From positions 38,440,001 to 38,504,000 of the forward strand of contig NW_025963813.1 of the NCBI RefSeq assembly GCF_023055435.1: DNA of 64,000 nt. Direction: 5' to 3'. Below, one piece after another: positions 10,569 to 57,857 of the stretch. A program made the position numbers and the translations under genes. The notes under the pieces are model-generated. The model was not told where the DNA came from. It ran no database searches and was given only the letters and a program-made list of their open reading frames with translations. Source of the DNA: Haliotis rufescens (taxonomy: Eukaryota). Each line of letters starts with the position of its first letter. Positions within the stretch are counted from its first letter, which is position 1.

Positions 10569-13500
10569 ATGAAGGTAACACTGTCAGTGCTCCTCCTGGT
10601 CACAACCTTCATGTCCTCCACATCATCGGGAGCAGTGAATGTCAGTGTCACGGTGTCCACAACACAAGCAGTGTCATTTATTGATGAACTATTTGTGGGC
10701 GTCACACTTGACTCCAGTCTCCTGCCGACCCCACAACACTGGAAAGGATTGGACTTCAGGTAAGTCAGTGAAGGTCATTGCCATAGATGACAATAGATAT
10801 CAAGTTATTGAAGATTCCTTGATTTGAAATCCATCATTTGTATTCACACTTATAGCTGAGATTTGGACACATCATATTCCTAGTTTTATTCATGCACATA
10901 ATTGATATGAAACAGACATAATTGTTTTAATCGAGCTATTGTAGATTCCTTTCATTTGAAATTGATATTTTGTATTCTTGTATTTTGGTAACGGCATAGT
11001 TCAAACTAGCAAAGCAGATGTCTACAATAAAAATGATTTCCAAGCCGTTTATCACAGAAAAAAAATATAAATATATAATAAATGCATGATGCTACTTCTG
11101 TTGTTCGTTAATTTATTTAGATAAATAGTATTCTCTTTGGATAGGTAACCAAGGCATGCGGTATAGCACATATAAACCTGCTCAATTATTTATGACGTAT
11201 GTCCTGTATCACGCTATTGCTTTACCTCCAGCTCTCAAAAAGTTCAGGCACTGGCTAAAGGCTTGTCTCCATGCTATCTGAGGATTGGAGGAACTGAAGG
11301 TGACAGCCTGACCTTTGACCCTACCGGTAATGGCACAGTAGATGTCAATCGTTCATTTACAGGTGCGTACATCTACTAAAGATATATATAGTTTGTCTTG
11401 TTGTTGTATTGCGGATGGATAAACCTTTGATTTTATTGTCACTGAGGTAGGATAAGAGGTGGTTCAAATATTAGAGCATCAGATGTGTTTGGGTGCTGTT
11501 ACTACAGTTGTATCTGCAGGAGCTACCTGATGTGTTTGGGTGCTGTTACTACAGCTGTATCTGCAGGAGCTACCTGATATGTTTGGTGCTGTTACTACAG
11601 TTGTATCTGCAGGAGCTACCTGATGTGTTTGGGTGCTGTTACTACAGTTGTATCTGCAGGAGCTACCTGATGTGTTTGGGTGCTGTTACTACAGTTGTAT
11701 CTGCAGGAGCTACCTGATATATTTGGGTGCTGTTACTACAGTTGTATCTGCAGGAGCTACCTGATGTGTTTGGGTGCTGTTACTGCAGTTGTATCTGCAG
11801 GAGCTACCTGATGTGTTTGGGTGCTGTTACTACAGTTCTATCTACAGGAGCTACCTGGGATGCTGTAAATACATTTGCCCAGGATGTGAACTGGAACTTT
11901 ATATTCGGTCTGAACGCCCTGAAGAGGAAGGAGGGACAGTGGGATCCTACTAACGCAAAGGAACTGCTGCAATACAACAGTGCGAAGGGGTACCAGCTGG
12001 CAGGTTTTGAACTCGGAAACGGTATGTATATAACTAAATACACGGATATATATGATTGAATATAAATTCAATATACAACTAATAAAGAAATAAAATTAAA
12101 TGTGCCAAAACGTTTGAACATCTGATGACATTTCTTTCATGAATCTGAGAAATTACCTTTTGCCCCTTAATTTCATACACAGAAAAATCAAGGAAAATAT
12201 CGCAATTTTACAAGATTTATGACTTGCCAATAACATCTCGTGACATTAATTCAGAAGTGTAACTGGTTACAGAACCTGACTTATTCCCTGGGCAATATAA
12301 CATCACTGTCAGCGGCAGTCAGTTAGGTAAGGACTTCTATACCTTCAAGAAGCTGCTCCGATCGACACCAGGGTATGAGGTGACACCAGTTATCGGACCT
12401 GACATGGCCTCTATAACTGGAGCAAAATCACAGTTCTTTGCTGAGTAAGTAGACTGAACTGACAATGTTGTCAATGAATTTACCTAAGGGTCGTGGCCAT
12501 ACAGTTTGACAAAAGAGTAAACCTCAATTCTGGTCGCAAAACATAACCCCCGAACAAAAACAAATGCACCACCTGCACGTGGAACACGATGGTGGACCCA
12601 TTGTTACAGCACCCGATGGCAATTAGAAAGAAACACCAAGACAACCTAGTAGAAAACATAATACCTAAATAATTAATATATTATAATAAACTGATGCTTT
12701 TTGTAGCCACCCAGTCAATGTGATATATCAATTTGGAGAATTATGGATGTAGAATCGTAGTCCCTTTTGTTCTGAAATACGTATAGTACTGGTTTATCTC
12801 ACGTGGTTGCTGTAGAAATATCTGTTGTGCTGTGAAGAGACAAAACCTACCTTCGTATTCGTCAGTTTGTCACGTAGAGTTGGATCTATGGTTTGAAGTA
12901 ACATACATGCACAATCGCTGTTTGAAGACATAACAGATTACAGCAACTCACACAACAATGCCCACTTTGTTTCCTCAGTTTCTTCACAGGAGGGGGAGAC
13001 AAGGCCGTGGACAGGATAACTTTTCACCAGTAGGTTGTTTACTTTAGAATCTATGTATTGTTCTAGACTACTTAACCTGTACCGGTTTTTCATTAAGTGA
13101 ATGGTCAAATATTATGTTTGTTGTAATTAAAATGCTTTGTATAAAGTTCATGGAATACTGACACGTTGCCCAAGTCAAATCTAGGAAAGTCCACAAATGC
13201 AATATTACACAGGAAGTTTACTTTCTGCTCTAAAAAAGTCAACCATCTCTGTTTATCATCACATTAACTGATTGAATAACGTAAGCCATGCCACCAAGTA
13301 TATGTACATGTTTTACCTGTTTGTGACATTTCCTACCAACCAAAGAAGATGAACCATGGTCATCAAACCTATCGATGTTTCTAACAGATACTACACCAGT
13401 GGCGAAACGGCAAACCTCACAGATTTTACTGATTCCAAGTTAATGGATAACCTGGTCACTTATATAGAGACGGTGTTGGATGTGACAAGACGCACCAACC

Positions 13501-16337
13501 CACTTACCCCAGTCTGGTTGGGAGAAACATCCTCCTGTTATCATGGCGGTGCCCCGGGAATCTCAGACAGATATGCCGCTGGGTTTCTGTGCGTACAACT
13601 TTAGCATATACACTTCCTACCTTGGTCAACTATACACGCATACTGATAATGAATATTGGTTCATGTCGTCTATCTAGGGCTGAAATATTGTAGATATGAA
13701 GAGATGACACAAAGATAAGATTTGTCTTCGGATGTAAGGACGGTTGTGATGTAATAGAATAGACGTGTGTGTGTTTAGATGCAACATATACACCACCTGT
13801 TGAAAGTGTACCCTTTTCAGGTGGCTGGACAAGCTTGGTGTTGCTGCTCGGATGGGACTGAAGACAGTTCTCAGACAGGATTTCTACGCAGCAAGCTATG
13901 GACTTATTGACAATGATACGTTTGAGCCATTGCCTGTAAGTACAGAACCAACCAGATTTCTTATTTCTTTCTTGAATATACATTTACACGACGTCACATC
14001 TTCTGGACAGTTCTTTCCTCTTGGTGTCATTCCTTACTTTCAGTGATCACACTGCACACTCTGATTTTACCGTTTCCATGTTAACGGATCACCTGATCAG
14101 TTATATAGAGACAGCTATGGATGTGTCAAGACGTACCAGCCAACCTACCCTTTCTTGGGGAGACATCCTCCTGTTATGATGGAGGTACACTTGGAATATC
14201 AGACATATATGTAGCATCTATAAAAAACAATCACTGATTTTCAGTACTGCATGAATATAGATTCACCGTTATGTTGCCTTCAAGCCAAATGGAATCTATT
14301 TCGCTTTTAAAATCGAGACTGGTTATTCTCTAGCATTGGCGTTGTATAATTATGGTATGAGTGAATCACGACCATGTAATCTGACTGATAATTCTGCAAC
14401 AGGTTGTGACACAATTGGTCAAAGTGGGTTGAGTGTTATGCATTTATCTCATGGAATGAAATCATTAGCCACCTTCTAAGGATGATGAAGCCTAATTGCT
14501 GCTGGGGCGGTCGGGTAGCCTAGTGGTTAAAGCTTTCGCTCGTCACGCCGAAGACCCGGGTTCGATTTCCGACATGGGTACAATGTGTGAAGCCCATTCC
14601 TGGTGTCCCCCGCCGTGATATTGCTGGAATATTGCGGGGTAAAACCATATTCACTCACTCACTAATTGCTGCAAGATTGCTCATGCGGCTCGACGCAAGA
14701 ATCACTCACTCGATTGATGTTATCATGTTATGACCTTCTTGGACATATAGACGTCTATATTAGCAAACCATTATCTTCACTATCATCTGATGTATCGATG
14801 AAAAATAATCATTTTCTCAAGTTGAAAACATGACCAAATATGAGTGGAGAAAGAGAATAAAAATGACTGAGCTGAAATATTGAAAACATGTTACAATAAT
14901 CAATATTTCAGCTTAGTCAGTGTGATAAAGCCTTTCCTCTTCCAAGACGCACTCTTCTGTATATGTCACAACCTAAGTACCTTAAGAAAAAATGAACGTT
15001 TAACATAGCGAAATGTAGTTGCAGTGCATTTTTTTTTCTACATCGATATTAATGACAAATGATGAGTTAGTTTTATTCAATCTGTTTTTTTACTGCAGGA
15101 CTACTGGTTAACCGTCCTGTATAAGAGACTCGTGGGAGGCGCCGTGTTTTCAGTAGAGGCGACCGTGGACAACAGCACCATCAGGGCCTACGCCCACTGC
15201 ACAAAGCCTTCCATGTAACTTGACAACCAAAATTACAACTGTAACCAGACATCGTAATGCATCAGGCTGCAAACACGAACATTCATAATAACAAACTATC
15301 GAATGAGATAAAGGCTATGTGAGGTGAGATACCATAAAACAGGGTTTAACATAAGATTATTGCGGGTTACAGGGTAACAACAAGTGCCATCTTTTGACGT
15401 CTTCTGACATGACGCGGCCGGGGAACGGATGAAAAGGGCAACATTATTGATGACCATTGGTCCTCATTATCCTTTATTTGTAATTCACGTGGTAACATAG
15501 TTCTCCTTCCGTCCGCAATCACGAAATCAAATGAGTTCATTTACATGCAAAGTGAATTAGTCCGCTATTACTTCGTGTTGTGTTTTAGTTCCTATGGCTA
15601 CATGCCCGGCGGTGTGACGATGTATTTCCTGCTGACCACAGACAACAACACCTCCATAACGTTCCCACAGTTTCCCGACCAACCTGTAGACGTGTTCTGG
15701 TTGACGCCAGTCGATGGACTCACTAGCAGGTAAGACCCCAACCAACCTGTAGACGTGTTCTGGTTGACGCCAGTCGATGGACTCACTAGCAGGTAAGACC
15801 CCAACCAACCTGTAGACGTGTTCTGGTTGACGCCAGTCGATGGACTCACTAGCAGGTAAGATTCCCAGCGAAGGTATAGAAGTCGTCTAGTTCACACTTG
15901 TCCTTGGACTCACCAGACGTCCTCTGGTTCACACCAATCGATGTCACTAGTATGTAATTTCCCAAACTAACTTTTACACTAATATATGAATGAGTTGCAG
16001 GTTGTAAGAGTAAGTCGGTACTTTCTTCTTGAAAACCACAGAAAACCATTCGTGAAATTATCATATATGTATTGGTTTACTATAACATACACATGTGATA
16101 CATGAACGTTACAAACTATAATTGTTCACAAAGTAGCATGTCAGCTCATGTTCAGTTCTCTGTTTTTACCATGTTAGGAAGGTGGCCTTGAACAACAAGC
16201 AGCTTGACCTTGTCAATAATTCGCTGCCGGAGCTGAAACCTTACAGGACAGAAGAAAACACCATCACCTTCCCCGGGAAGTCATTCGGGTTCCTCGTCTT
16301 CCCTGAGGCTAACGTAGCCTCCTGCAGTAGCCAGTAA
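10569..16337 (+). CDS. HPSE: Heparanase-like GH79 gene B, complete, 10 exons, 483 aa
   Basis: Exons 10569-10759, 11232-11362, 11848-12021, 12273-12444, 12979-13029, 13388-13588, 13821-13935, 15099-15214, 15589-15729, 16178-16337 total 1452 nt and are open throughout. Motifs YLRIGGT, FELGNEPD, ITFHQYY, WLGETSS, WLDKLG, PDYW, YAHC; signal peptide; all introns GT-AG. Confidence 0.93.
11482..11856 (+). repeat. Minisatellite, 8 x 47 bp, made of the exon 3 splice acceptor of gene B
   Basis: Unit GATGTGTTTGGGTGCTGTTACTACAGTTGTATCTGCAG|GAGCTACCT. Confidence 0.92.
14062..14215 (+). pseudogene. Degenerate duplicate of gene B exon 6 inside intron 7
   Basis: Colinear with 13423-13580 (gattttac...ttatatagagac...acatcctcctgttatgatggaggt...atatcagaca), with a deletion across the PVWLGE region. 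Confidence 0.8.
14504..14661 (+). mobile_element. Short tRNA-derived SINE family 1
   Basis: GGGTAGCCTAGTGGTTAAAGC...GGGTTCGATT head, (ACTC)n tail, 11-bp TSD CTAATTGCTGC. Other copies at about 2430-2560(-), 5548-5708(-), 5765-5900(+), 50940-51025(+), 53570-53730(+), 63910-63965(-). Confidence 0.85.
15679..15861 (+). repeat. 3 x 63-bp tandem repeat of the exon 9 end plus donor of gene B
   Basis: GT donors at 15730, 15793, 15856; degenerate fourth copy near 15910-15958. Confidence 0.92.
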
Positions 16338-19177: not shown

Positions 19178-22100
19178 TCACTTGCAGATATCAACATCCG
19201 CATCAGGAAACACAGCAAACCCGAAGGTCCTTGCTGGCAGCATGAGGAGCCCGCCATAGGCCTTTTGAGGGGGCATGTCGGGGATGGTGTTGTTCACATA
19301 ATCCAGTCGTTTACCATTTAGTGTCACATTCCTGAAATTACAATGTCAGTGTCATATATCAAACGGTATATCTGTGCCAATAAGACGCCAACCACTTCCC
19401 AAACGACGACAACACATCAGCTATTCGGATTACAATGGTTAATAAAATGTACGTGACATTATAGGTCACGTCTATCTATGTAGTGCGTAATGTAAAGGCA
19501 AGGACAAAGCGTTATTGTTAGGTGTTATTATTATTATTATTTTCATCTCTATGGCATGAAATATTAGCAAACCCGACTGACGTTAGCCTTTGTTACAAAG
19601 TGTTTAAAGTGTTCTGAATAGTTTCTTTGTGACATCACGTATCCGTATACTTGCCTTGAAGTAAGGTCTATGAACTCTGGTCTGAGCCAGAAGAGATCCA
19701 TATTCTTTTGGAATTGTGGGAAGGTGGCGACGGTGGTGTAGATGTTGACGTTGACGATGTAGACTACAACACTACCCGGCTTGTAGTTGTACACGCTGTG
19801 AAAAAATATGTGGAACATTGTTGGACAAAAAATGGTTAATATAGTTAAGCACTTCCGAATTCGATGTCATTAAATTACAAGCACCTCATGAAAATGTGTG
19901 ACGGCAGTGCAGATATGTTAAATGTTCTTTATGTTGATGATTGAATTTAAAGAGGAAGTGACTGAAACATAAATATTTGTCTCCTGCATACTGACTACCC
20001 CATCAGCACATCCCAAGGAGGAGATATTTTGTTCTAGAAGTTGATGTTCAAATATAAAAAGGACACTGACTATCCCACTCAACACCTTCCAACTGTGTAC
20101 CTGTTCTGTTTGGCACAGTGGGCGTAGACCCTGAAACTGTTGCTTGAGTTGGTCTGCACAGATAACACTTTATTCCCAACCAGTCTCTTGTAGAGCAAAG
20201 TCAGCCAGTAGTCCTGGAAAGTGACAATTGTCACACAAAGAACATACTCAGATTTATCACATGAAAGGGTCATGAGCGGGTGACAGGGTAGCAGGTTTAC
20301 CAACAGTTATCAAATACTGGACACATTGACACATAAATTGGCTACGTAAAAATAGATAGAAAGTTTCACGATATCCAATGATGTCTCTACAGTTCAAGTC
20401 AGAGACATTAGGTAAACTGACAAAGTATTTCTTAATGTATTACCGAAAGAAACTCCTTTTGCAACGAGTTTTAGATAATCCTAATGGAACAAGAATATAT
20501 GATATTTGTACCTACCGGATAAGGTTCAAACGTGTGCGGTTCGATCAGAGAATAATTTTGTCCATAGTACGATTGTCTCAAAACCCCTTTAAGTCCCATC
20601 CTTGAAGCAACCCCGAGCTTGTCTAACCATCTGAAATATTCATATCATTAATAGTCCAGGTAAGTGTAAATCAAAACATTTATGTTTTATGTTCAAAGCG
20701 AGTTGAACAAATGAAATGGAGGAGACGATTTTGCGTTCATTAGACTATCCATGTCGTCGTGCACATTCCCCAATTGCGTGGATCGATGCTCATGATATCA
20801 GTCACTGCACTGTCAGGTCCAGACTCGATTATTTACAGAAAGCCGTCATATGACTGGAATATTGCTGAGAGCGGCGTTCAGCTTACTCCTGCTTCAACAT
20901 CATTAACAAGACAAGAATGTATACCAACTGTTTACTCAGTGTTTTATGTGTGTCTGTGTATTCTGCAATGTCCAGGCCCATATGGTCTATACCCAGAGGG
21001 AAGCTGGTACTAAATATAACCTCAGCAGCATGAGTTTGGTTTGGTTGTTTGTTGTTCAAGACCGCACACAGCAATATTCCAGCTATATGACGGCGGTCTG
21101 TAAATAATCGAGTCTGGACCAGACAATCCAGTGATTGACATTAGCATCAATCCACGCAATTGGAATACAATGCGCATGAGGATCAGATGGTTACCATTCA
21201 GGAACTGACTGATTGCCTAGAATACCTTCTTTACAATCCGCACCCCTATAGTTTCTAACTGTCTCGAAAGCGAACATCCATGCACTATAAACTGGCCAAT
21301 TGATAAACCATTCGGTCGTCACTCTGTAGACCCAGGTTCGAATCCTCACATTGGAAACTTATATGAAGACCATTTCTGGTGTCCCCTGCCGTGATATTGA
21401 TGGAATAGTGCTTAAAGCTCACTCAGTCATTCGCGCACTCCAAATTTGTTTCGCCATGGAAATAATGCAGACAGACAATACTCACAGAAAGCCTGCAACA
21501 TATCTATCAGATATATCAGGTGCTCCCCCGCCATAGAAGGACGATGTCTCCCCAAGCCAAACGGGAGTGTCGGGGTTGGTAGGAGCGGTGACATTACGCA
21601 CTCTATGGATGTCAGATATCAGGCTGTCCAGCACCTTGGGGTCGAGACAGGTGTCCACTGTAACACCGACTTCGTAGGCATAGTATCTAAACATTCAAAC
21701 ATTTCAAATTCAACGCAAAGAAAAGTTCGTTTTTAAGTGTCCCTACTGCAATGGTTGACAAACGTAGTGCCGTTACATGTGTGGTTACAAAAACCTAATT
21801 AGATAAATAAGTAAGAAACTGATATAGCTTAAAACTCACTGGTGAAAGGTGATTCTGTCGACAGCTTTGCTTCCTTCACCTTTGAAGAAACTGTGAAATA
21901 GTCAATAGGAATCCCAGCATTAAACTCGTTTCAAAATCCGTTTACGGTATAGAACATGGAATATGTGACTGAATATGATGTACTGGAGTGGTGCATGGGT
22001 CATCTATATATCGTTTATCACATTGCTGTAATATAGCAGTTGGGTACCATGAGGCCTCACATTTTAATTTAATTTAACAACCCCCATGATGATGCTCTAA

Positions 22101-29625: not shown

Positions 29626-32600
29626 TCACTTGCAGATATCAACATCCGCATCAGGGAACACGGCAAACCCGAAGGTCCTCGCTGGCAGCATGAGGAGCCC
29701 GCCATAGGCCTTTTGAGGGGGCATGTCGGGGATGGTGTTGTTCACATAATCCAGTCGTTTACCATTTAGAGTCACATTCCTGAAATTACAATGTCAACTG
29801 AAATTAAGGACAACACTAGCGACGATAAACCATAGTCTCGTTAGTTATATGAGTGATCACGTTTGAGTATGTAGCACATTATATAAAGTAAAACGCACGT
29901 AATATTAGCCTGTATCATAAAGTGTTCTCGTTCCGCTGTGTATTAGTCTCTGACCATCATCATGTATCCCTTTACTTGCCTTGATGTAAGTTCTATGAAC
30001 TCTGGTCTGAGCCAGAAGAGATCCATATTCTTTTGGAATTGTGGGAAGGTGACGACGGTGGTGTAGATGTTGACGTTGACGATGTAGATTACGACACTGC
30101 CCGGCTTGTAGTTGTATACACTATTCAAAGATATGGAAACAGGTTGGAGCGAAAAGTTACAATATTTTGGCACATCAGAAGTCATCACATTACATGCACG
30201 TTATGGAAATGGATGACAACAGAGGAGACATTTATGTTCTAGAAGTTAATGTTCAAATATAAAAAGGACACTGACTATCCCACTCAACACCTTCCAACTG
30301 TGTACCTGTTCTGTTTGGCACAATGGGCATAGACCCTGAAACTGTTGGTTGAGTTGGTCTGCACAGATAACACTTTATTCCCAACCAGTCGCTTGTAGAG
30401 CAAGGTCAGCCAGTAGTCCTGGAAAGTGACAATTGTCTATGCATCACGTAGGTCTGAATCGTATCGGAAGAAAATATGTGGCGCAGAAAAGTTTCTGAAA
30501 ATACAGGACTTTCACGCTTCATGCATGACACTGGTGCTACTGTCTTGTATTGTATATATGTGCAGGTAATATGAGTTTGTGTGAATACGTTTGATTAATT
30601 ATGTATATTATGTAACTTCTGGTGGAAAATAAAGATTTTAGCCAGTCCCGACGGAACAAGATGCCATGATATTTGTACCTACCGAATAAGGTTCAAATGT
30701 GTTCATCTCGATCAGAGAATAATTGTGTCCATAGTATGATTGTCTTAAAACCCCTTTAAGTCCCATCCGTGAGGCAACCCCGAGCTTGTCTAACCATCTG
30801 AAATATTAATTTGAAGCTAGGTGAATCAAATGCGGGATGAATAATTGCTCACATGCTTGTCGAGGTAGGGTTGCGCATTCATTCTGGCACTATCCACAAC
30901 AATAAAAGTCCTCAAACGGGCACGGGCGGCCTAGTCGTCAAGGGCGCCGCGATTCGATGTGCAGAGTTGCGTCCCTTGGGCACGCTAAAAACCTATGATT
31001 GTGGGTTCGAATCCCGGTTCGCCCCGATTATGTTTCTAGGTTTGTCAGCACCATACCCGTGCTCGTGGGTTAATCTGAAGTGGTAAACGTCTAAGACCTG
31101 CATCACATCGGGCTTTCCTCCCATACTAAGCTGACACTCCGTGATATAACTGGAATACTGTTAAAAGCGGCATTAAACCCAATTCACTTACACCCACCAG
31201 ATTAAACAAGGCTGTATATAATTTTTTTCAGCTGACAGATGTTGGCCGAAGTTTTATGTGTGTTTGTTGTTTCTGTTTGGTCCAGGTCCATATCGTCAAC
31301 TAACCGGTTACTACAAATATCCTCAGCAGTATGAGCGTGAGTAGGTCTCCATGCAGGATCTGGCTGATTGTGTGTCACCATGCACCGACTGGTCTTGCTG
31401 TCAAACTCTGGTTTGCCAGACCCAGTATTGTGTATTTACAAAACGCACCGCTAAAGCTTGACTATTTCTAACTACCTCGTAAAAGAACACCAATGCACTA
31501 TAAACAGGGGTAACTATAAACCGTTTGGTCGTCACGCTGTTGACCCAGGTTCCATTCCTCATACTGGTAGGTTCCCTGAAGCTAGTTTCTGGTATATTCT
31601 ACTGATGAAATAGGTGTAAGTACATACTCGCTCTATAAATTGTTATACTTTATAAAAATAAAGTAACTTTCAAAAAGAGAGACAATACTCACAGAAACCC
31701 CGCTACATATCTATCAGATAACGCTGGAGTTCCCCCACCGTAGAAGGACGATGTCTCCCCAAGCCAAAGGGGAGTGTCGGGGTTGGAGGGGGTGGTGACA
31801 TTACGCACTCTGTGGATGTCAGATATCAGGCTGTCCATCACCTTGGAGTCGAGGCAGGTGTTCACTGTTGCATCGCCTTCAAAGGCATAGTACCTAAACA
31901 TTTAAAGCATTTTCAAATGTGACGCTAAGGAAAACTCGTTTATTAAGTGTCCCTACTGCAATATTAATAAGCGTAGAGTAGTAACATGTGTAGTTACAAT
32001 AACTTAATTCAACACATGTTTCAGAAGATGACATAGCTTAAGACTCACTGGTGAAAGGTGATTCTGTCAACGGCCTTTCTTCCTTCGCCTTCGAAGAAAC
32101 TGAAAAATCATCAATAGGAATTCTAGCATCAAACTCATAATTGTGAATACCGTTTTCGGTAATTGAATGGTGTGAGCTACTGGATTAGTGTCATGGATAC
32201 TTTACAATGATTTATATATCGCTTATCATATCACCGCATTAAAACAGTTGAGAAGATTGACCATGTCCATGAAGTATCATTTGTTACTTTCACATCAGTA
32301 TCATGCTACTGGTACCCAGATGACAATGTGTGCCAATCATGAAAACATGTGTTCTAAGTTTCCACTTACTTCTGAAACAATATGGATTTCGGTCCTGAGA
32401 TACCTGTTACATCTGGTCCAATCACCAGCGTGGATTCGAACCCAGGAGTAGACTTGAGGATTTCCCTAAGATGGACAAAATCTCGCCCAAGCTGTGCTCC
32501 AGAAATTGTATTGGTGAAGGGTTCAGGGAAATATTCAGGTTCTAGAGACCAAAGAAACTAGAGTATTATATCAAGAATATGATTATGGTCGTTACAGTAC

Positions 32601-41628: not shown

Positions 41629-41794
41629 TTGTATCTACCTCCAGTACTTGTCCATTATTACAATTATATGTGTATTTTGAGCATTATACATGTCACACGT
41701 ATAACTGTGGAATGTCAAACAAGAACAGAAAGCCAAGTTTGTAATGGAACGCCGTTTATAGTTTGCTACACGTGACGTCTAATACCAGTCAGCA

Positions 41795-44700
41795 TCACTT
41801 GCAAATATCAACATCCGCATCAGGGAACACAGCAAACCCGAATGTCCTTGCTGACAGCATGAGGAGCCCGCCATAGGCCTTTTGAGGGGGCATGTCGGGG
41901 ATGGTGTTGTTCACATAATCCAGTCGTTTACCATTTAGTGTCACATTCCTGAAATTACATCATCAGTGGCAAAGAATCAATGTGAGCTCTCGCGCAATGC
42001 GACAGAAAGCCACGTCCTATCAACAACAGCCTATCAGTTATGCAGTTTGTACAATGATGACAGAATCAGAATATCAAACAATGCGTGTTACAGCACAAAT
42101 CACTTTTCAGAATGTATTACTTTCCATTGGTGTTCGTTGCAAATTGTTCAAAGTGTTCTATATATGTTCTTGACTATCAGTCTTGATTTTCCGCCGATAC
42201 AGATTCCACTGAATGTAAAAGGCAAAATAGTGGTGAAAATTATATGAATGATGCACCAGGTTTTAGCGAAATTTGTAAACTTGTTCTGCTATAAATAACC
42301 ATTACGCGTGTATTCACTCGCCTCGAAGTAAGTTCTATGAACTCAGGCCTAAGCCAGAAGACATCCACATTGGTCTGGAATTGAGGGAATGTGACGACGG
42401 TGGTGTAGGTGTTGACGTTGATGATGTAGACTACAACACTACCTGGCTTGTAGTTGTAGACGCTGTAACAATACATGATGGCCATAGTGAGTGAAGGGAC
42501 AATGCTGTCCAGGACATCAGAAATCACCCATTTCCTCACGAGAGTCGGGGTGAAATTGTGTTTCACGTCGCATTCAAGATTATTGCACTTACCTAGCGAC
42601 GAACATTCACGTGTTTGTGTGTGTGTGTACATGTGTGGCTGCTTGTACTATTCCGGACTGGTGCCGATTTTACAGTGCTAGCCCAATGAGATACCATGCC
42701 ACAGTTTACCATAAATACCAGATTCAGACACAATACACTGACTCTGAGCCGACCAGCCCTTGTTTAAGCCCCGTAATGCCGAGCGCCAGACAGGGTAACA
42801 AGTAGTACCATCTCTTGACGTCTTTTGGTATGACGCGGCCTGGGAAGATATGGTGTAATTCCAATACAGATGTTGATGATTATGAAATAAATTATGATAA
42901 TTAATTTACCTGTCCCTCCTATTTGGTTTTAATCGTCAATATTTTCTCCTGTATACTGAGCACACCATCTAACACACCCACTTTGTACCTTTCCTGTTTG
43001 GCACAGTGGGCGTAGACCCTGAAACTGTTGGTTGAGTTGGTCTGCACGGATAACACTTTATTCCCCACTAGTCTCTTGTAGAGCAAGGTCAGCCAGTAGT
43101 CCTGGAAAGTGACAATTGTCTTTGCATCACGTAGGTCTGAATCATATCTGAATATAAAAAGCACTACTGACTAACCCATGCATCACCTTCCAACTGTGTA
43201 CCTGTTCTGGTTGGCACAGTGGGCATAGACCCTGAAACTGTTGGTTGAATGGGTCTGCACAGATAACACTTTATTCCCAACCAGTCTCTTGTAGAGCAAG
43301 GTCAGCCAGTAGTCCTGGAAAGTGACACATTCAAGCGTATTGTCATAAACATGTAACGTCGAATACCTGTTAACCTGAATACATTATAACATTATGTGTT
43401 TTCTATATTTGTATCACTGTCAGGGGCATGGGTCTGTGGTAATTAGGTTAAGAATTATTTAGTCTGTGATTAATGGCTGACACATATGTGAGTAAGTATG
43501 GATTGACCTCTTTTTATCAGTACTCCAGTTACAAATTGTTGCTACATAACACTCTGAACTCGCGTGAGTTTGGTTTGAGGTTGCTTTGAACAATACTACA
43601 ATTTTGTGAGAGCGTGCCACGATCACCCGGGTGCGCGTATGGGTTTCACAAACCTAGAAATATAATGAAAGCGAACTGCGATAAGTACACATGACCATTG
43701 ATTTCTTGCACGACTCAGGGACGTCGGCACAGCGAATTCCATACAACGTCTTAAGCCACTTCGCAATGTTCCCCTTTACCGTGGCTGACATTCATTCAAA
43801 GAAACCTGGCACCGTTCATAATCGGATCAACAATTTGTAAGTAAGTAAATGTACAGTTGTTCATTTCACAAAGCGGCTTCCATGTCGCCATGGCAGGGGA
43901 CTACATCCGTTTGCTTTCGGCGTAGACATCGCGGGTTCGAATCCCGTGGGCGACACACATTTTTCGTGAACTTGTTCTATCATCAAGGGAGTGGTGTTTA
44001 AGTCAGTTAGCGGCTGGTCAAAGACAGGGAAGCCATGTCTAGTTACACAATACTTAAAAAATAAACTGAACTAATATCCCTTCGTTAATGAGTCCTTGCT
44101 ATAAAATTCATCATTTTGACAGTCATGAAAAATTAACATTAACAACGTTACAAAGCCAATATATAGATTGTACTCTGATTCATAATCATCTCAATGTCTT
44201 AAAGTGGCGACACTGCCAAAGGTGGAAGTGAGCAGAAAGCACCCTTCTCTCCACGGTTGCCTCGTGAAATCTACCAGGCAGGATAGTAAATTCGCTGTTT
44301 ACTAACCTTCTGGTCGTTGTTACTAATTGAGTTACAACAATTCACTCGACTTTTCTCTCAGGACAAGGAGGCAGTCGAATAGTTGTGGTCTCGAGGTAAT
44401 CTAGTGTTTTCTGTTCTTGCTGATCCACGGTTTCTCCAGTATTAGCTGCCTGTTTAACGCTTCACACAGTAAAATGTTCCAGGTAAATGAAAACAGTTGG
44501 TATAATTGACAATGTGGTTCACAACACATTCCCGAAAGAAACACATTGTGCGATGTTGATAAGATATTATATGTACCTACCGGGTAGGGTTCAAACGTGT
44601 TCATCTCGATGAGAGAATAATTTTGTCCATAGAATGATTGCCTTAAAACCCCTTTGAGTCCGATCCGTGAAGCAATACCGAGCTTGTCTAACCATCTGAA

Positions 44701-47700
44701 ATGTTCACATCATTACAATGTACATGTTGGTGTAAAATTAATACAGTCACGTTTTGTTTTCGATTGAGCAGTATACCTCTCTAAAGGTGATGTTTTACAC
44801 TCCAATATGCAGCATTCCAGATATATCACTGAGGCCTTTAAATAACCAACTACCGAGACCATAATAATGCTATGATCAACGAACGATGTCGAGGTACAAC
44901 TGCATATATTAGTAGCGGCTCTGGTGACACACGAAAGTTGTTGAAGCTTTAATCTGATTTTTTACACATGCAACTTACAAAGTTCAAAACTAATTTCGGT
45001 TGAGAGAACTTCGAGTAATTGTTTCAGTTATTCTCTTCAAAGGGTTTTCTGAGAACATTAAACGTACCGTTTGGTAACAAAGTTTATAAATATGAAAAGT
45101 CAACGTCAGATAATTACGCAATGGGGATTATACAATTATTTGAAACAAATTATGAATTAATTGCATGTCAAAGCATACGAGTGCAAATCACAACACATGT
45201 CCAAAAAAGTTGCAACAAAATTCATATGAGGATGAGGGCTAATACACAAAATTAGATCACAGTTATAACCGTAGTTGGTTATAAAACATATATACAGCAT
45301 ATAAACAGCAAATGGCCTGGCCCCAAAATCTGTTCGTTAAATCCGCCAGTTCGTTATAAACGTAGTTTACTGTACATGAATTCCATGTGTACGTAACATT
45401 TGTTCACCAGACATTGTTGTGAGTTATAAGAAACGAAATGCTAACCTATAGTAGACATTCTTGACAAATACTCACAGAAAGCCGGCCACATATCTATCCG
45501 ACAGTCCAGGCGCTCCGCCTCCAGAGAAAGAAGACGTCTCCCCGAGCCACAAGGGAGTGTCGGGGTTGGCGGGGGTGGTGACGTTGCGTACTATGTCAAT
45601 GAAACTTATGAGACTGTCCATCACTTTGGGGTCGATAAAGGTGTCCACTTTAGCATTGCCTTCGAAGCCGTAGTAGCTAGACATTCAATAATTCCAAATT
45701 AGGTGAGAGTAGGTGAACTGTGATTTAACGTCACATACAAGGATAACGTGGGCAGCATGATAGAACCGAGGATCAAACCACAGAATTTCTGCTCTCTGGG
45801 CAGGCACTCCATCTACTAGACCACGGATGTAACCTGGCACAAATTATTAAATATCTCCTTTACAAAGCATCTCAATGTTCATTACTGATTAATAGTATCT
45901 GTTGTCAAATGAAACTTAATTGAATATATAAATAAGAAAATTATAATAGCTTACTCACTGGTGGAAAGTTATCCTGTCAAGCGCTTTTCGTCCGTCCCCT
46001 TTAAAGAAACTGTAAGGGAATACATGTGAATCTAACAATACGACTCTTCTATTTATACTGGTTCATCCATACCGAGAACATCGGGCATAAGGAAGTATCT
46101 GCATACATGGTGTCAGTTTTACTGTAAAATCAGTATACCATATTGCTGTAATCAGTAATTATTTATCACAATAATGCTGCTTTCATCTGTTGTCATAAAG
46201 GCCCTTATACCAATTGCGCTGATTACGAGAAGATATGTTTTGTATTTTTCTACTTACGTTTTAAACAATATCGATTTTGGCCCTGAGATAGCTGTTACGT
46301 CTGGTCCAATCACCAGGGTGGATTCAAAGCCAGGTGTAGACTTGACTATTTCCCTAAGATGGACAAAATCTCGCCCAAGCTGTGCTCCAGATATTGTATC
46401 GGTGAATGGTTCGGGAAAATATGCAGGTTCTAGAGAACAACCAAGTAGAGTACTGAATCAAGGAAATGACTCATGAATTCGAAACACATGAATTCATAAA
46501 GCACCCATAGCTGACTTTGAGTCAAGCACGATATGTTTTAGTAACACACGCAGATGAAGAAGCCAGGAAAAAAGTATATCGTCTACAAGAATGCTTGGCT
46601 GTATAATTATGACCTATATAACTATACACTACCATTTCCGAGTTCAAAGGCCGGTATCGTGTAGTTCCTGGCATTGCTATAGCTCATCAGTTCTTTGGCG
46701 TTTTCAGGGTCCCACTGTCCGTCTTTCCGCTTCAACACGTTGAGACCAAACACCAATTCCCACCCCACGATCCTCAAAAAGTCATTGAGATTGTCCCACA
46801 TAGCACCTCAAAGATAAAAAGAAGAAGCATGTACTTCCATCGAAAGCAATATTTATTCATGCAAATAGTAAACAGTTATTTTGATTGATTGATTGATTCG
46901 TGTCGCTGTGTATAAGGATTTTAAATTACAAAACGTTTTTAAACAGGAGCTTGCGTATGATGATTTCACAGCAGATAAAGTCAAGATTTTAAACATATTA
47001 CGTTGTGAATCATTGAATGGGAATTTTACCACCAGGCTTCACGGAATTGTAATTGCAACGGACTTTGTAAGTCCTTGTCAGCTCAAACCGTTTGACTTTT
47101 TTAACCAGTTGAACATTATTCAGTTATGATTGTCATGGTATTGAGTACAGCTCCCCCCTCNNNNNNNNNNNNNNNNNNNNNNNNNNNNNNNNNNNNNNNN
47201 NNNNNNNNNNNNNNNNNNNNNNNNNNNNNNNNNNNNNNNNNNNNNNNNNNNNNNNNNNNNNNNNNNNNNNNNNNNNNNNNNNNNNNNNNNNNNNNACATA
47301 TATAAGTCATATAAACATACCAGTATAAGTGGAGTTTGCACTTGTACCCCCATGACCCGTTGGGTCAAAGGTCATGAAGTCTCCAGGTGTTCCTCCTATC
47401 CTCAGGTAGCACGGATACAATGCTTTAGCAAGTGTTTGCACTTTATGCGATCTAGTTTTAAGATAAAGTATATTCATCAGAAACTGGAAATAGTTGCGTT
47501 GCTATTTAAAACTTCAAATAATTTGCACCATATTCATGTATTATACTGTTACCTGAAGCAAATACAATCTATTTATCATTATTTGAATAGTACACTCACG
47601 CGAAATCAAGTCCTTTCCAATCAATTGATATTGGAAGCATGGATGAATCAAAGGTCACTCCAACGAAATGGTCATCTATCGATCCTATTTCCTTGTCTGT

Positions 47701-47784
47701 AGCAACAGTGACAGATACAGACTGACTCAGTGTAAATTGCACAAACCAGGAACACAGAATAACGAGCAAACGTCTCACATACAT
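41795..47784 (-). CDS. HPSE: Heparanase-like GH79 gene E, complete, with duplicated exon 8 (8a/8b)
   Basis: Exons 47600-47784, 47321-47451, 46633-46806, 46258-46429, 45959-46009, 45476-45676, 44581-44695, 8a 43202-43314 or 8b 42989-43101, 42322-42462, 41795-41948. GNEPA and WLGETSS. N-gap in intron 2. Confidence 0.9.
47161..47295. other. Assembly gap
   Basis: Run of N in gene E intron 2. Confidence 1.
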
Positions 47785-57249: not shown

Positions 57250-57480
57250 TACTTGCACTAACGGAACAGTCTGACTCACTTTACATTAATCATGTAAGGA
57301 TCAGAGTATAACAAGCACACGTCTCACAGTCATGGCGTCCTCAGCACTGCATGTAAGTACCTATATAAAGAAGTATAACATTTAATGTGAATGACTGACC
57401 TCGTGTCAATGGCAAAGCTCTGATAAGCCAGAACAGATAAAACAACTTGCTTATTTAAGTACGATGATGGATTTTTTTAA
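57250..57480 (-). pseudogene. Dead copy of promoter plus truncated exon 1 (C/D-type) upstream of gene F
   Basis: ATG at 57333 reads MTVRRVLVIL then TGA (57303-57301, TGC in paralogs). Its upstream flank matches the gene C/D promoter (TATA-like box, TGACCT, two GATAA). Confidence 0.8.
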
Positions 57481-57857
57481 AGTATAATAAAATGCTTTTA
57501 TGGACCCAGATATATCTGACATAACGTAATGAACCTATGTATTATGCTAATTGTACCAGTTTATCAAGTTTGACAGTGTACAATGATACTGCCTTAACAA
57601 GGTGAAGAAATGACAATGTCTTCATAATTAAACATATTCAGGTTTAAAAAAAAAACATGCGACCATTTATCATTGTATATATTTGTATACAACATTCACA
57701 ATCAACAGAACAATGAAGCCATGACATAACTATCATTTTTTTTATTGAATGTTATATTGTAAAGAGCCGCATGGTCAGTAATTGTGTGCATACCTTATCT
57801 TACTGTTCGAAAGATACATATTTAATATTTGTGATGCTGTTTTGTGTTTTAACACCA

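Follow-up and report, generated by a model that had tools for sequence, protein, structure and literature searches.

A probably paralog-derived second copy of exon 8 in a heparanase-like gene of Haliotis rufescens, most likely skipped or unproductive

When a gene carries two adjacent, intact copies of one exon, the question arises whether both serve as alternatives in the mature RNA or whether one of them goes unused. Gene E, which contains two such copies of its exon 8 (8a and, downstream of it, 8b), lies in the window, by which we mean the whole stretch of 64,000 nt of Haliotis rufescens DNA analysed here (assembly GCF_023055435.1, contig NW_025963813.1, positions 38,440,001-38,504,000, forward strand). 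A sequence-only reading had proposed that 8a and 8b form a newborn pair of mutually exclusive exons. Our analysis favours a real duplication that was derived from a paralog and in which 8a is most likely skipped or unproductive.

Gene E and its two copies of exon 8

The product of gene E that includes 8b is identical to RefSeq XP_048250508.1 (P0001), a record named heparanase-like from Haliotis rufescens, and matches human heparanase over its full length (E 1.5e-85). A Pfam scan of this product returned PF03662, and 1/6 single exons matched when scanned individually. Full-length likeness was found to human HPSE and to leech 7eyo (GH79 heparanase / hyaluronoglucuronidase), the GNEP and GETS motifs of GH79 heparanases are also present in gene E, and exon 8 aligns to the DYWLSLLFKKLVG...RVYLHC segment of GH79 heparanase. 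Judged by domain content and full-length similarity, gene E is thus a GH79 heparanase-like gene; the endo-beta-glucuronidase activity of the abalone paralogs is putative. In one E copy (P0012, P0015) the motif reads GSEP where the other copies have GNEP, beside the glutamate that we take to be the acid/base catalytic residue.

The window contains four intact GH79 heparanase-like paralogs, C, D, E and F, all of which have 10 exons of identical lengths and open frames of 478 codons. A more divergent paralog occupies about 11200-15200 on the plus strand (70-80% in exons), and part of the exon-1 region is repeated upstream of gene F (57256-57481). The acceptor of intron 2 is a rare GAG in E (46807), C (22728), D (32984) and F (55095), and at the E acceptor an RNA contig runs from exon 3 into exon 2. 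All four paralogs use a GC donor at intron 9, and in E, where this intron spans 41949-42321, the corresponding 373-nt skip is present in 4/4 RNA assemblies. Divergence among C, D, E and F amounts to 12-26% in exons 5-6 versus 2.6-3.9% in exon 10 (exons 8-10 compared), and the low value in exon 10 suggests conversion at the 3' end. One RefSeq isoform (P0006) is F-like at its front and D-like in the remainder, which may be due to a gene chimera, to splicing across genes or to faulty mapping. Since the genomes tabulated in the portion of PMC7560691 that we consulted hold 1-4 GH79 genes each, the abalone array appears comparatively large.

The anatomy described by the sequence-only reading, with two intact copies of 113 nt, CAG acceptors, GTAC donors and a spacing of 100 nt, checked in every feature and coordinate (Table 1), and the two copies are adjacent homologous exons of the same phase with intact splice sites. 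Their 9 nucleotide and 3 amino acid differences were likewise confirmed in the window, but only two of the latter are fixed, because the K/N site of 8a (43210) encodes K in 2/4 cluster copies and is therefore polymorphic. Exon 8a is open in 4/4 cluster copies, with 0 stops and 0 indels. The first 32 nt of 8a and 8b are identical, the donor of 8a equals the working donor of D over 18 nt, and the pyrimidine counts of the acceptors (11/17 in 8a versus 10/17 in 8b) do not separate the copies.

Table 1. Positions in the window of gene E, its exon 8 pair and associated features.
Feature	Position	Strand	Remark
Gene E, GH79 heparanase-like	41795..47784	-	10 exons, 478 aa with exon 8b
Exon 7	44581..44695	-	spliced to 8b in 4/4 RNA assemblies
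E's own intron 7	43315..44580	-	1266 nt; ends at the 8a acceptor
45-nt block (13 intron + 32 exon)	43283..43327	-	identical to 43070-43114; presumed crossover site
Exon 8a, extra copy	43202..43314	-	QN end (C/D/F-type), QTH, sequon lost
Middle intron, donor half	43151..43201	-	first 51 nt of D-type intron 8
TGA met by 8a read-through into middle intron	43183..43185	-	RefSeq isoform X2, 386 aa
Predicted pairing element, middle intron	43160..43181	-	partner: acceptor AG + first 19 nt of 8a or 8b
Middle intron, acceptor half	43102..43150	-	last 49 nt of D-type intron 7
Exon 8b, spliced and probable ancestral copy	42989..43101	-	QTNST, QE end
Premature TGA, codon 385, with 8a and 8b both included	43089..43091	-	
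E's own intron 8	42463..42988	-	first 58 nt resemble those of the C copies (74-78%)
Exon 9	42322..42462	-	spliced to 8b in 4/4 RNA assemblies
Candidate donor unit in D: intron 7 end + exon 8 + intron 8 start	30256..30467	-	

Inclusion of both copies leads to a premature stop (...QN-R-T-T-G-stop), as had been claimed, and skipping of both leads to a stop at codon 351, so that the frame permits a productive product from one exon 8 only. The middle intron measures 100 nt, and the short introns of these genes 123-373 nt. Splicing is sterically limited at a donor-to-branch spacing of roughly 50 nt; a steric block of 8a-8b joining is unsupported here, the distance from the donor to branch-like motifs being 57-72 nt.

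Origin of the extra copy

The end of exon 8 is acidic (E or D) in 9/9 subfamily proteins of H. asinina and H. rubra and also in the E and D orthologs of H. cracherodii, resembling the QE of 8b, and the H. cracherodii E ortholog is listed with the 8b form only. A QN end, by comparison, is confined to C, D and F of this genome, to C- and F-like proteins of H. cracherodii and to 8a. Consistently, 8a differs from the C, D and F copies by a mean of 5.5 nt and from 8b by 9.0 nt. The sequon is indeed present in 8b and missing from 8a, but the polarity had to be corrected: N-S-[ST] is kept in 16/16 other exon-8 copies compared and in 0/4 copies of 8a, which points to a loss in 8a. From the acidic end in other abalones, the proximity of 8a to C, D and F and the loss of the sequon, we infer that 8b is the native exon and 8a an import from a paralog. 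A constraint test gave no sign of purifying selection on 8a, with 4/81 changes relative to D in the exon and 8/100 in the intron (p 0.55, low power).

The middle intron is chimeric, as the sequence-only reading had recognised: in the window, nt 1-51 resemble intron 8 of C and D (45/51) and the last 49 nt resemble intron 7 of D (46/49). Its assignment of the donor half to C or D could be narrowed to D, since 3/4 C copies match at 37-38/51 only, compared with 45-46/51 in 4/4 D copies. The acceptor half matches intron 7 at 43-46/49 in 4/4 D copies and at 22-29/49 in C and F. A simple tandem duplication within E was rejected, as the middle intron is unlike E's own flanks (14/35 and 18/49). These outer introns are, by sequence likeness, old and C-like rather than D-type; the 5' part of E intron 7 resembles its counterpart in C and D at about 69-73%.

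In the middle intron of E, the D-type start of intron 8 precedes the D-type end of intron 7, the reverse of their order in D. Hence the paralog origin proposed earlier stands, but plain unequal crossover does not: both intron halves come from D in permuted order, and a simple E x D exchange as the sole cause would be incapable of joining intron 8 to intron 7. Among the 21 matches scored, the end-to-end junction was absent from every D copy and occurred only in the four E copies.

We propose that a 213-bp segment of D, running from the final 49 nt of intron 7 through exon 8 into the first 51 nt of intron 8, would have had its ends joined, either in a small DNA circle or because a D allele carried it as a tandem repeat. 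The joined unit would then have recombined into E within the 45-nt block common to both acceptors, so that the native introns of E now flank the pair and the intron between the copies is D-type throughout. A circle, a tandem repeat and two separate conversions all fit this product equally well.

Two side observations concern neighbouring introns. Intron 8 of the C copy in the window (19796-20100) is 305 nt long, compared with 229-231 nt in the other three C copies, and in it a D-type start stands ahead of the C-type start; this is likely a second D-derived transfer beside exon 8. Intron 7 of D exists in two forms, of 264 nt (window 30419-30682) and 380-419 nt (L005, L009), which share only their ends.

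The C-D-E-F cluster occurs four times on contig C35, at about 38.46-38.50, 39.25-39.29, 39.65-39.69 and 40.33-40.36 Mb, with 96-99% identity between the copies, which may be real segmental copies or partly haplotypes. The exon pair is present in 4/4 of them with an identical middle intron, and 0 variable sites in 100 nt are expected at a background of about 1%. Because all four copies carry the pair and the same intron, the pair appears to predate the four-fold expansion, and because the insert's intron sequence has diverged from D by 6-12%, it is probably young though not newborn.

The near-identity of the four copies, some of which may be haplotypes, would also fit a mis-assembly of the second exon or of the whole four-fold cluster. 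We regard such an artefact as very improbable: 8a and 8b differ by 9 nt, a non-homologous junction is identical in four copies that differ elsewhere, and in another sample an unspliced contig extends over 43298-43618, into 8a. Moreover, extensive segmental duplication on three abalone chromosomes is reported as genuine in the portion of PMC12627906 available to us.

Splicing of the pair and predicted RNA structure

Of 24 runs listed, 14 were guessed to be RNA on grounds other than an RNA record, and four were used; these are contig assemblies from one study of unspecified tissue, searched at 94% likeness, in which GT-AG joints show spliced RNA. The 7-8b (44580/43100) and 8b-9 (42989/42462) joints were present in 4/4 RNA assemblies. 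Joints 7-8a, 8a-9 and 8a-8b with E flanks were found in 0/4 and were absent from the 9 joint rows listed, 613 pieces and 68 loose ends lying outside the listing. Starting at the acceptor, RNA contigs span 65-112 nt of 8b, beyond the sites that separate it from 8a, and two hold the complete 8b with 0 other letters. Exon 8b is therefore the spliced exon in the RNA assemblies examined, and the either/or splicing put forward by the sequence-only reading was not borne out as far as these four assemblies, from one study, reach, since one copy only was spliced. Contigs drop rare variants, so a minor isoform could be missing from the four assemblies, and two exons of the same length form the type of bubble that an assembler collapses. 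RNA with an 8a-8b joint would contain a premature stop and may be missing from the assemblies through depletion. RNA depth over 8a was left out because paralogs map there at 94% likeness.

Three further signals were set aside. Joint 42466/42994 (X1, depth 53.2) was attributed to a probable transcript of paralog C, its contig having a QN-type end and G at exon-9 index 40; loose end 43315 (X3), located at 8a, was attributed to a probable C/F exon 7; and joint 45285/45349 was ignored as lying inside a repeat. At 8 sites spread over exon 9, exon 10 and the 3' UTR (41775-42368) the transcribed sequence has L001-type letters, but in exon 7 (44608) it has the letter of the window, so that it represents either another haplotype or a contig of mosaic origin.

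In RefSeq, the E cluster comprises 7 proteins. The full-length members use 8b in 4/4 cases (isoform X1), and 3/3 members with 8a are 386-aa read-through products (isoform X2) at 3 loci. A 7-8a-9 protein was found in 0 of these 7 members, and no full-length QTH protein occurred among the subfamily members of the 23 matches to the 8a read-through peptide. X2 implies some support for 7-8a, and may reflect real intron retention or mis-mapping, because 8a and 8b begin with the same 32 nt and short reads could be misassigned.

An inverted-repeat scan over 2.1 kb revealed, after the fact, the pairing element in the middle intron. Its predicted duplex reaches -31.0 kcal/mol with either exon, a value attained by 2/2000 shuffles, and with z -4.6 the helix ranked first of 32 internal exons tested (one was skipped for N), followed by D exon 8 at -1.9. 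As a weaker version is present in D (-22.9 to -27.7 kcal/mol), the helix was probably inherited from D. Random drift from the two D types reached -31 in 80/3000 and 1/3000 trials, in a test that takes today's D as its start and ignores an indel. Whole-region folds place the element on 8b, most of them with P about 0.9; in a partial transcript without 8b its pairing to 8a was 0.00-0.94, depending on the upstream length chosen. The element is identical in the four cluster copies, and we treat its predicted docking-site-like layout as a lead.

These data bear on the possibility that the two form a young mutually exclusive pair, with 8a used in place of 8b in a particular tissue, at a certain stage or in a small share of transcripts. 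The 8a enzyme would then lack the N365 glycan site, the element would switch between exon starts and decay would clear double inclusion, a route to mutual exclusion that is listed in the consulted part of PMC6071210. Intact copies in 4/4 clusters, frame arithmetic that permits one exon only, and a competing helix stronger than in D all agree with this idea, as does the layout, which resembles the docking-site model of PMC6071210 (as far as our partial view of it goes) in having one element complementary to each exon start. On the other hand, 8a-9 was seen in 0/4 runs, no 7-8a-9 protein was found among the cluster and subfamily members considered, and the helix was inherited from single-exon D and recognised post hoc. 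We therefore consider mutual exclusion unlikely. Its most elaborate form, in which the pair is caught at birth, with a D exon delivered by a DNA circle, a hairpin arm strengthened later and a switch between glycosylated and non-glycosylated enzyme somewhere, is more doubtful still.

Regulated unproductive splicing would account for X2 differently: the 8a acceptor would be used, the middle intron retained or 8a joined to 8b, and the RNA degraded, so that degradation tunes the output of E. The read-through isoform at 3 loci and a 100-nt intron of ordinary size here speak for this, and such RNAs would be scarce and missed by contigs. No such joint was found in the 4 RNA assemblies, however, X2 may stem from the 32 identical nt, and there is no sign of regulation or conservation, the invariance of the intron being that of the background. 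This explanation, too, seems improbable to us.

The preferred explanation is an ordinary exon duplication in which 8a is likely silent or unproductive and passed over by the majority of transcripts. The intact frame of 8a, its D-like donor and the support that X2 implies for 7-8a speak against this reading. Transcripts joined 7-8b-9 would yield the 478-aa enzyme, and entry at 8a would result in read-through to the stop that follows RYTVGR in the middle intron, or in joining to 8b with the stop at codon 385; transcripts of either kind would lose most of the C-terminal domain and be targets of decay. By pairing the middle intron with the 8a acceptor before 8b is transcribed, the predicted helix may aid the skipping of 8a, although at equilibrium it is predicted on 8b, the exon in use.

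Relation to known systems

Among the matches listed, no title or abstract dealt with an exon duplication in an abalone heparanase gene. As it most probably stands, the locus offers a small, clear case of exon-sized pieces moving between the members of a paralog array, and of a gene that tolerates a frame-breaking extra exon by skipping it; it also flags RefSeq isoform X2 as a possible mapping product. Should 8a be productive anywhere, the origin of mutual exclusion would become testable, with donor, recipient, junction and candidate helix all identifiable. If the pair were indeed at birth, it would be a natural test of how duplication of one arm of a stem-loop leads to docking-site splicing, with the single-exon ancestor D adjoining.

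Pseudo-exons and poison alternative acceptors have intact-looking sites, are skipped in mature RNA and produce a stop when used. Exon 8a is like a poison acceptor in this respect and differs in its source, which is a paralog exon rather than an intron or repeat.

Mutually exclusive tandem exons, as described in the parts that we consulted of PMC8373072 (a catalogue) and PMC6071210 (Dscam, srp, MRP1), are adjacent homologous exons of equal length, as in E. Double inclusion likewise shifts the frame in E, and for both copies pairing with one shared element is predicted. In contrast to those pairs, of which 215/236 human duplication-derived substitutions (91%) are common with fish (PMC8373072), E has one copy seen in productive splicing and is neither ancient nor shown to be conserved. 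Furthermore, its element sits in the intron that separates the copies, the predicted targets are the exon starts and not the flanking introns, and the copy itself came from a paralog.

The arrangement of the insert finds its closest counterpart in eccDNA-mediated duplication, for which the accessible part of PMC7188851 describes a donor a-j that reappears as e-j followed by a-d. The E insert is equally permuted, with D sequences in altered order and a novel end-to-end junction. Unlike that case, the E unit is 213 bp long, duplicates a coding exon and would have entered a paralog via a 45-nt block; conversion from a tandem repeat accounts for E as well as an eccDNA circle does.
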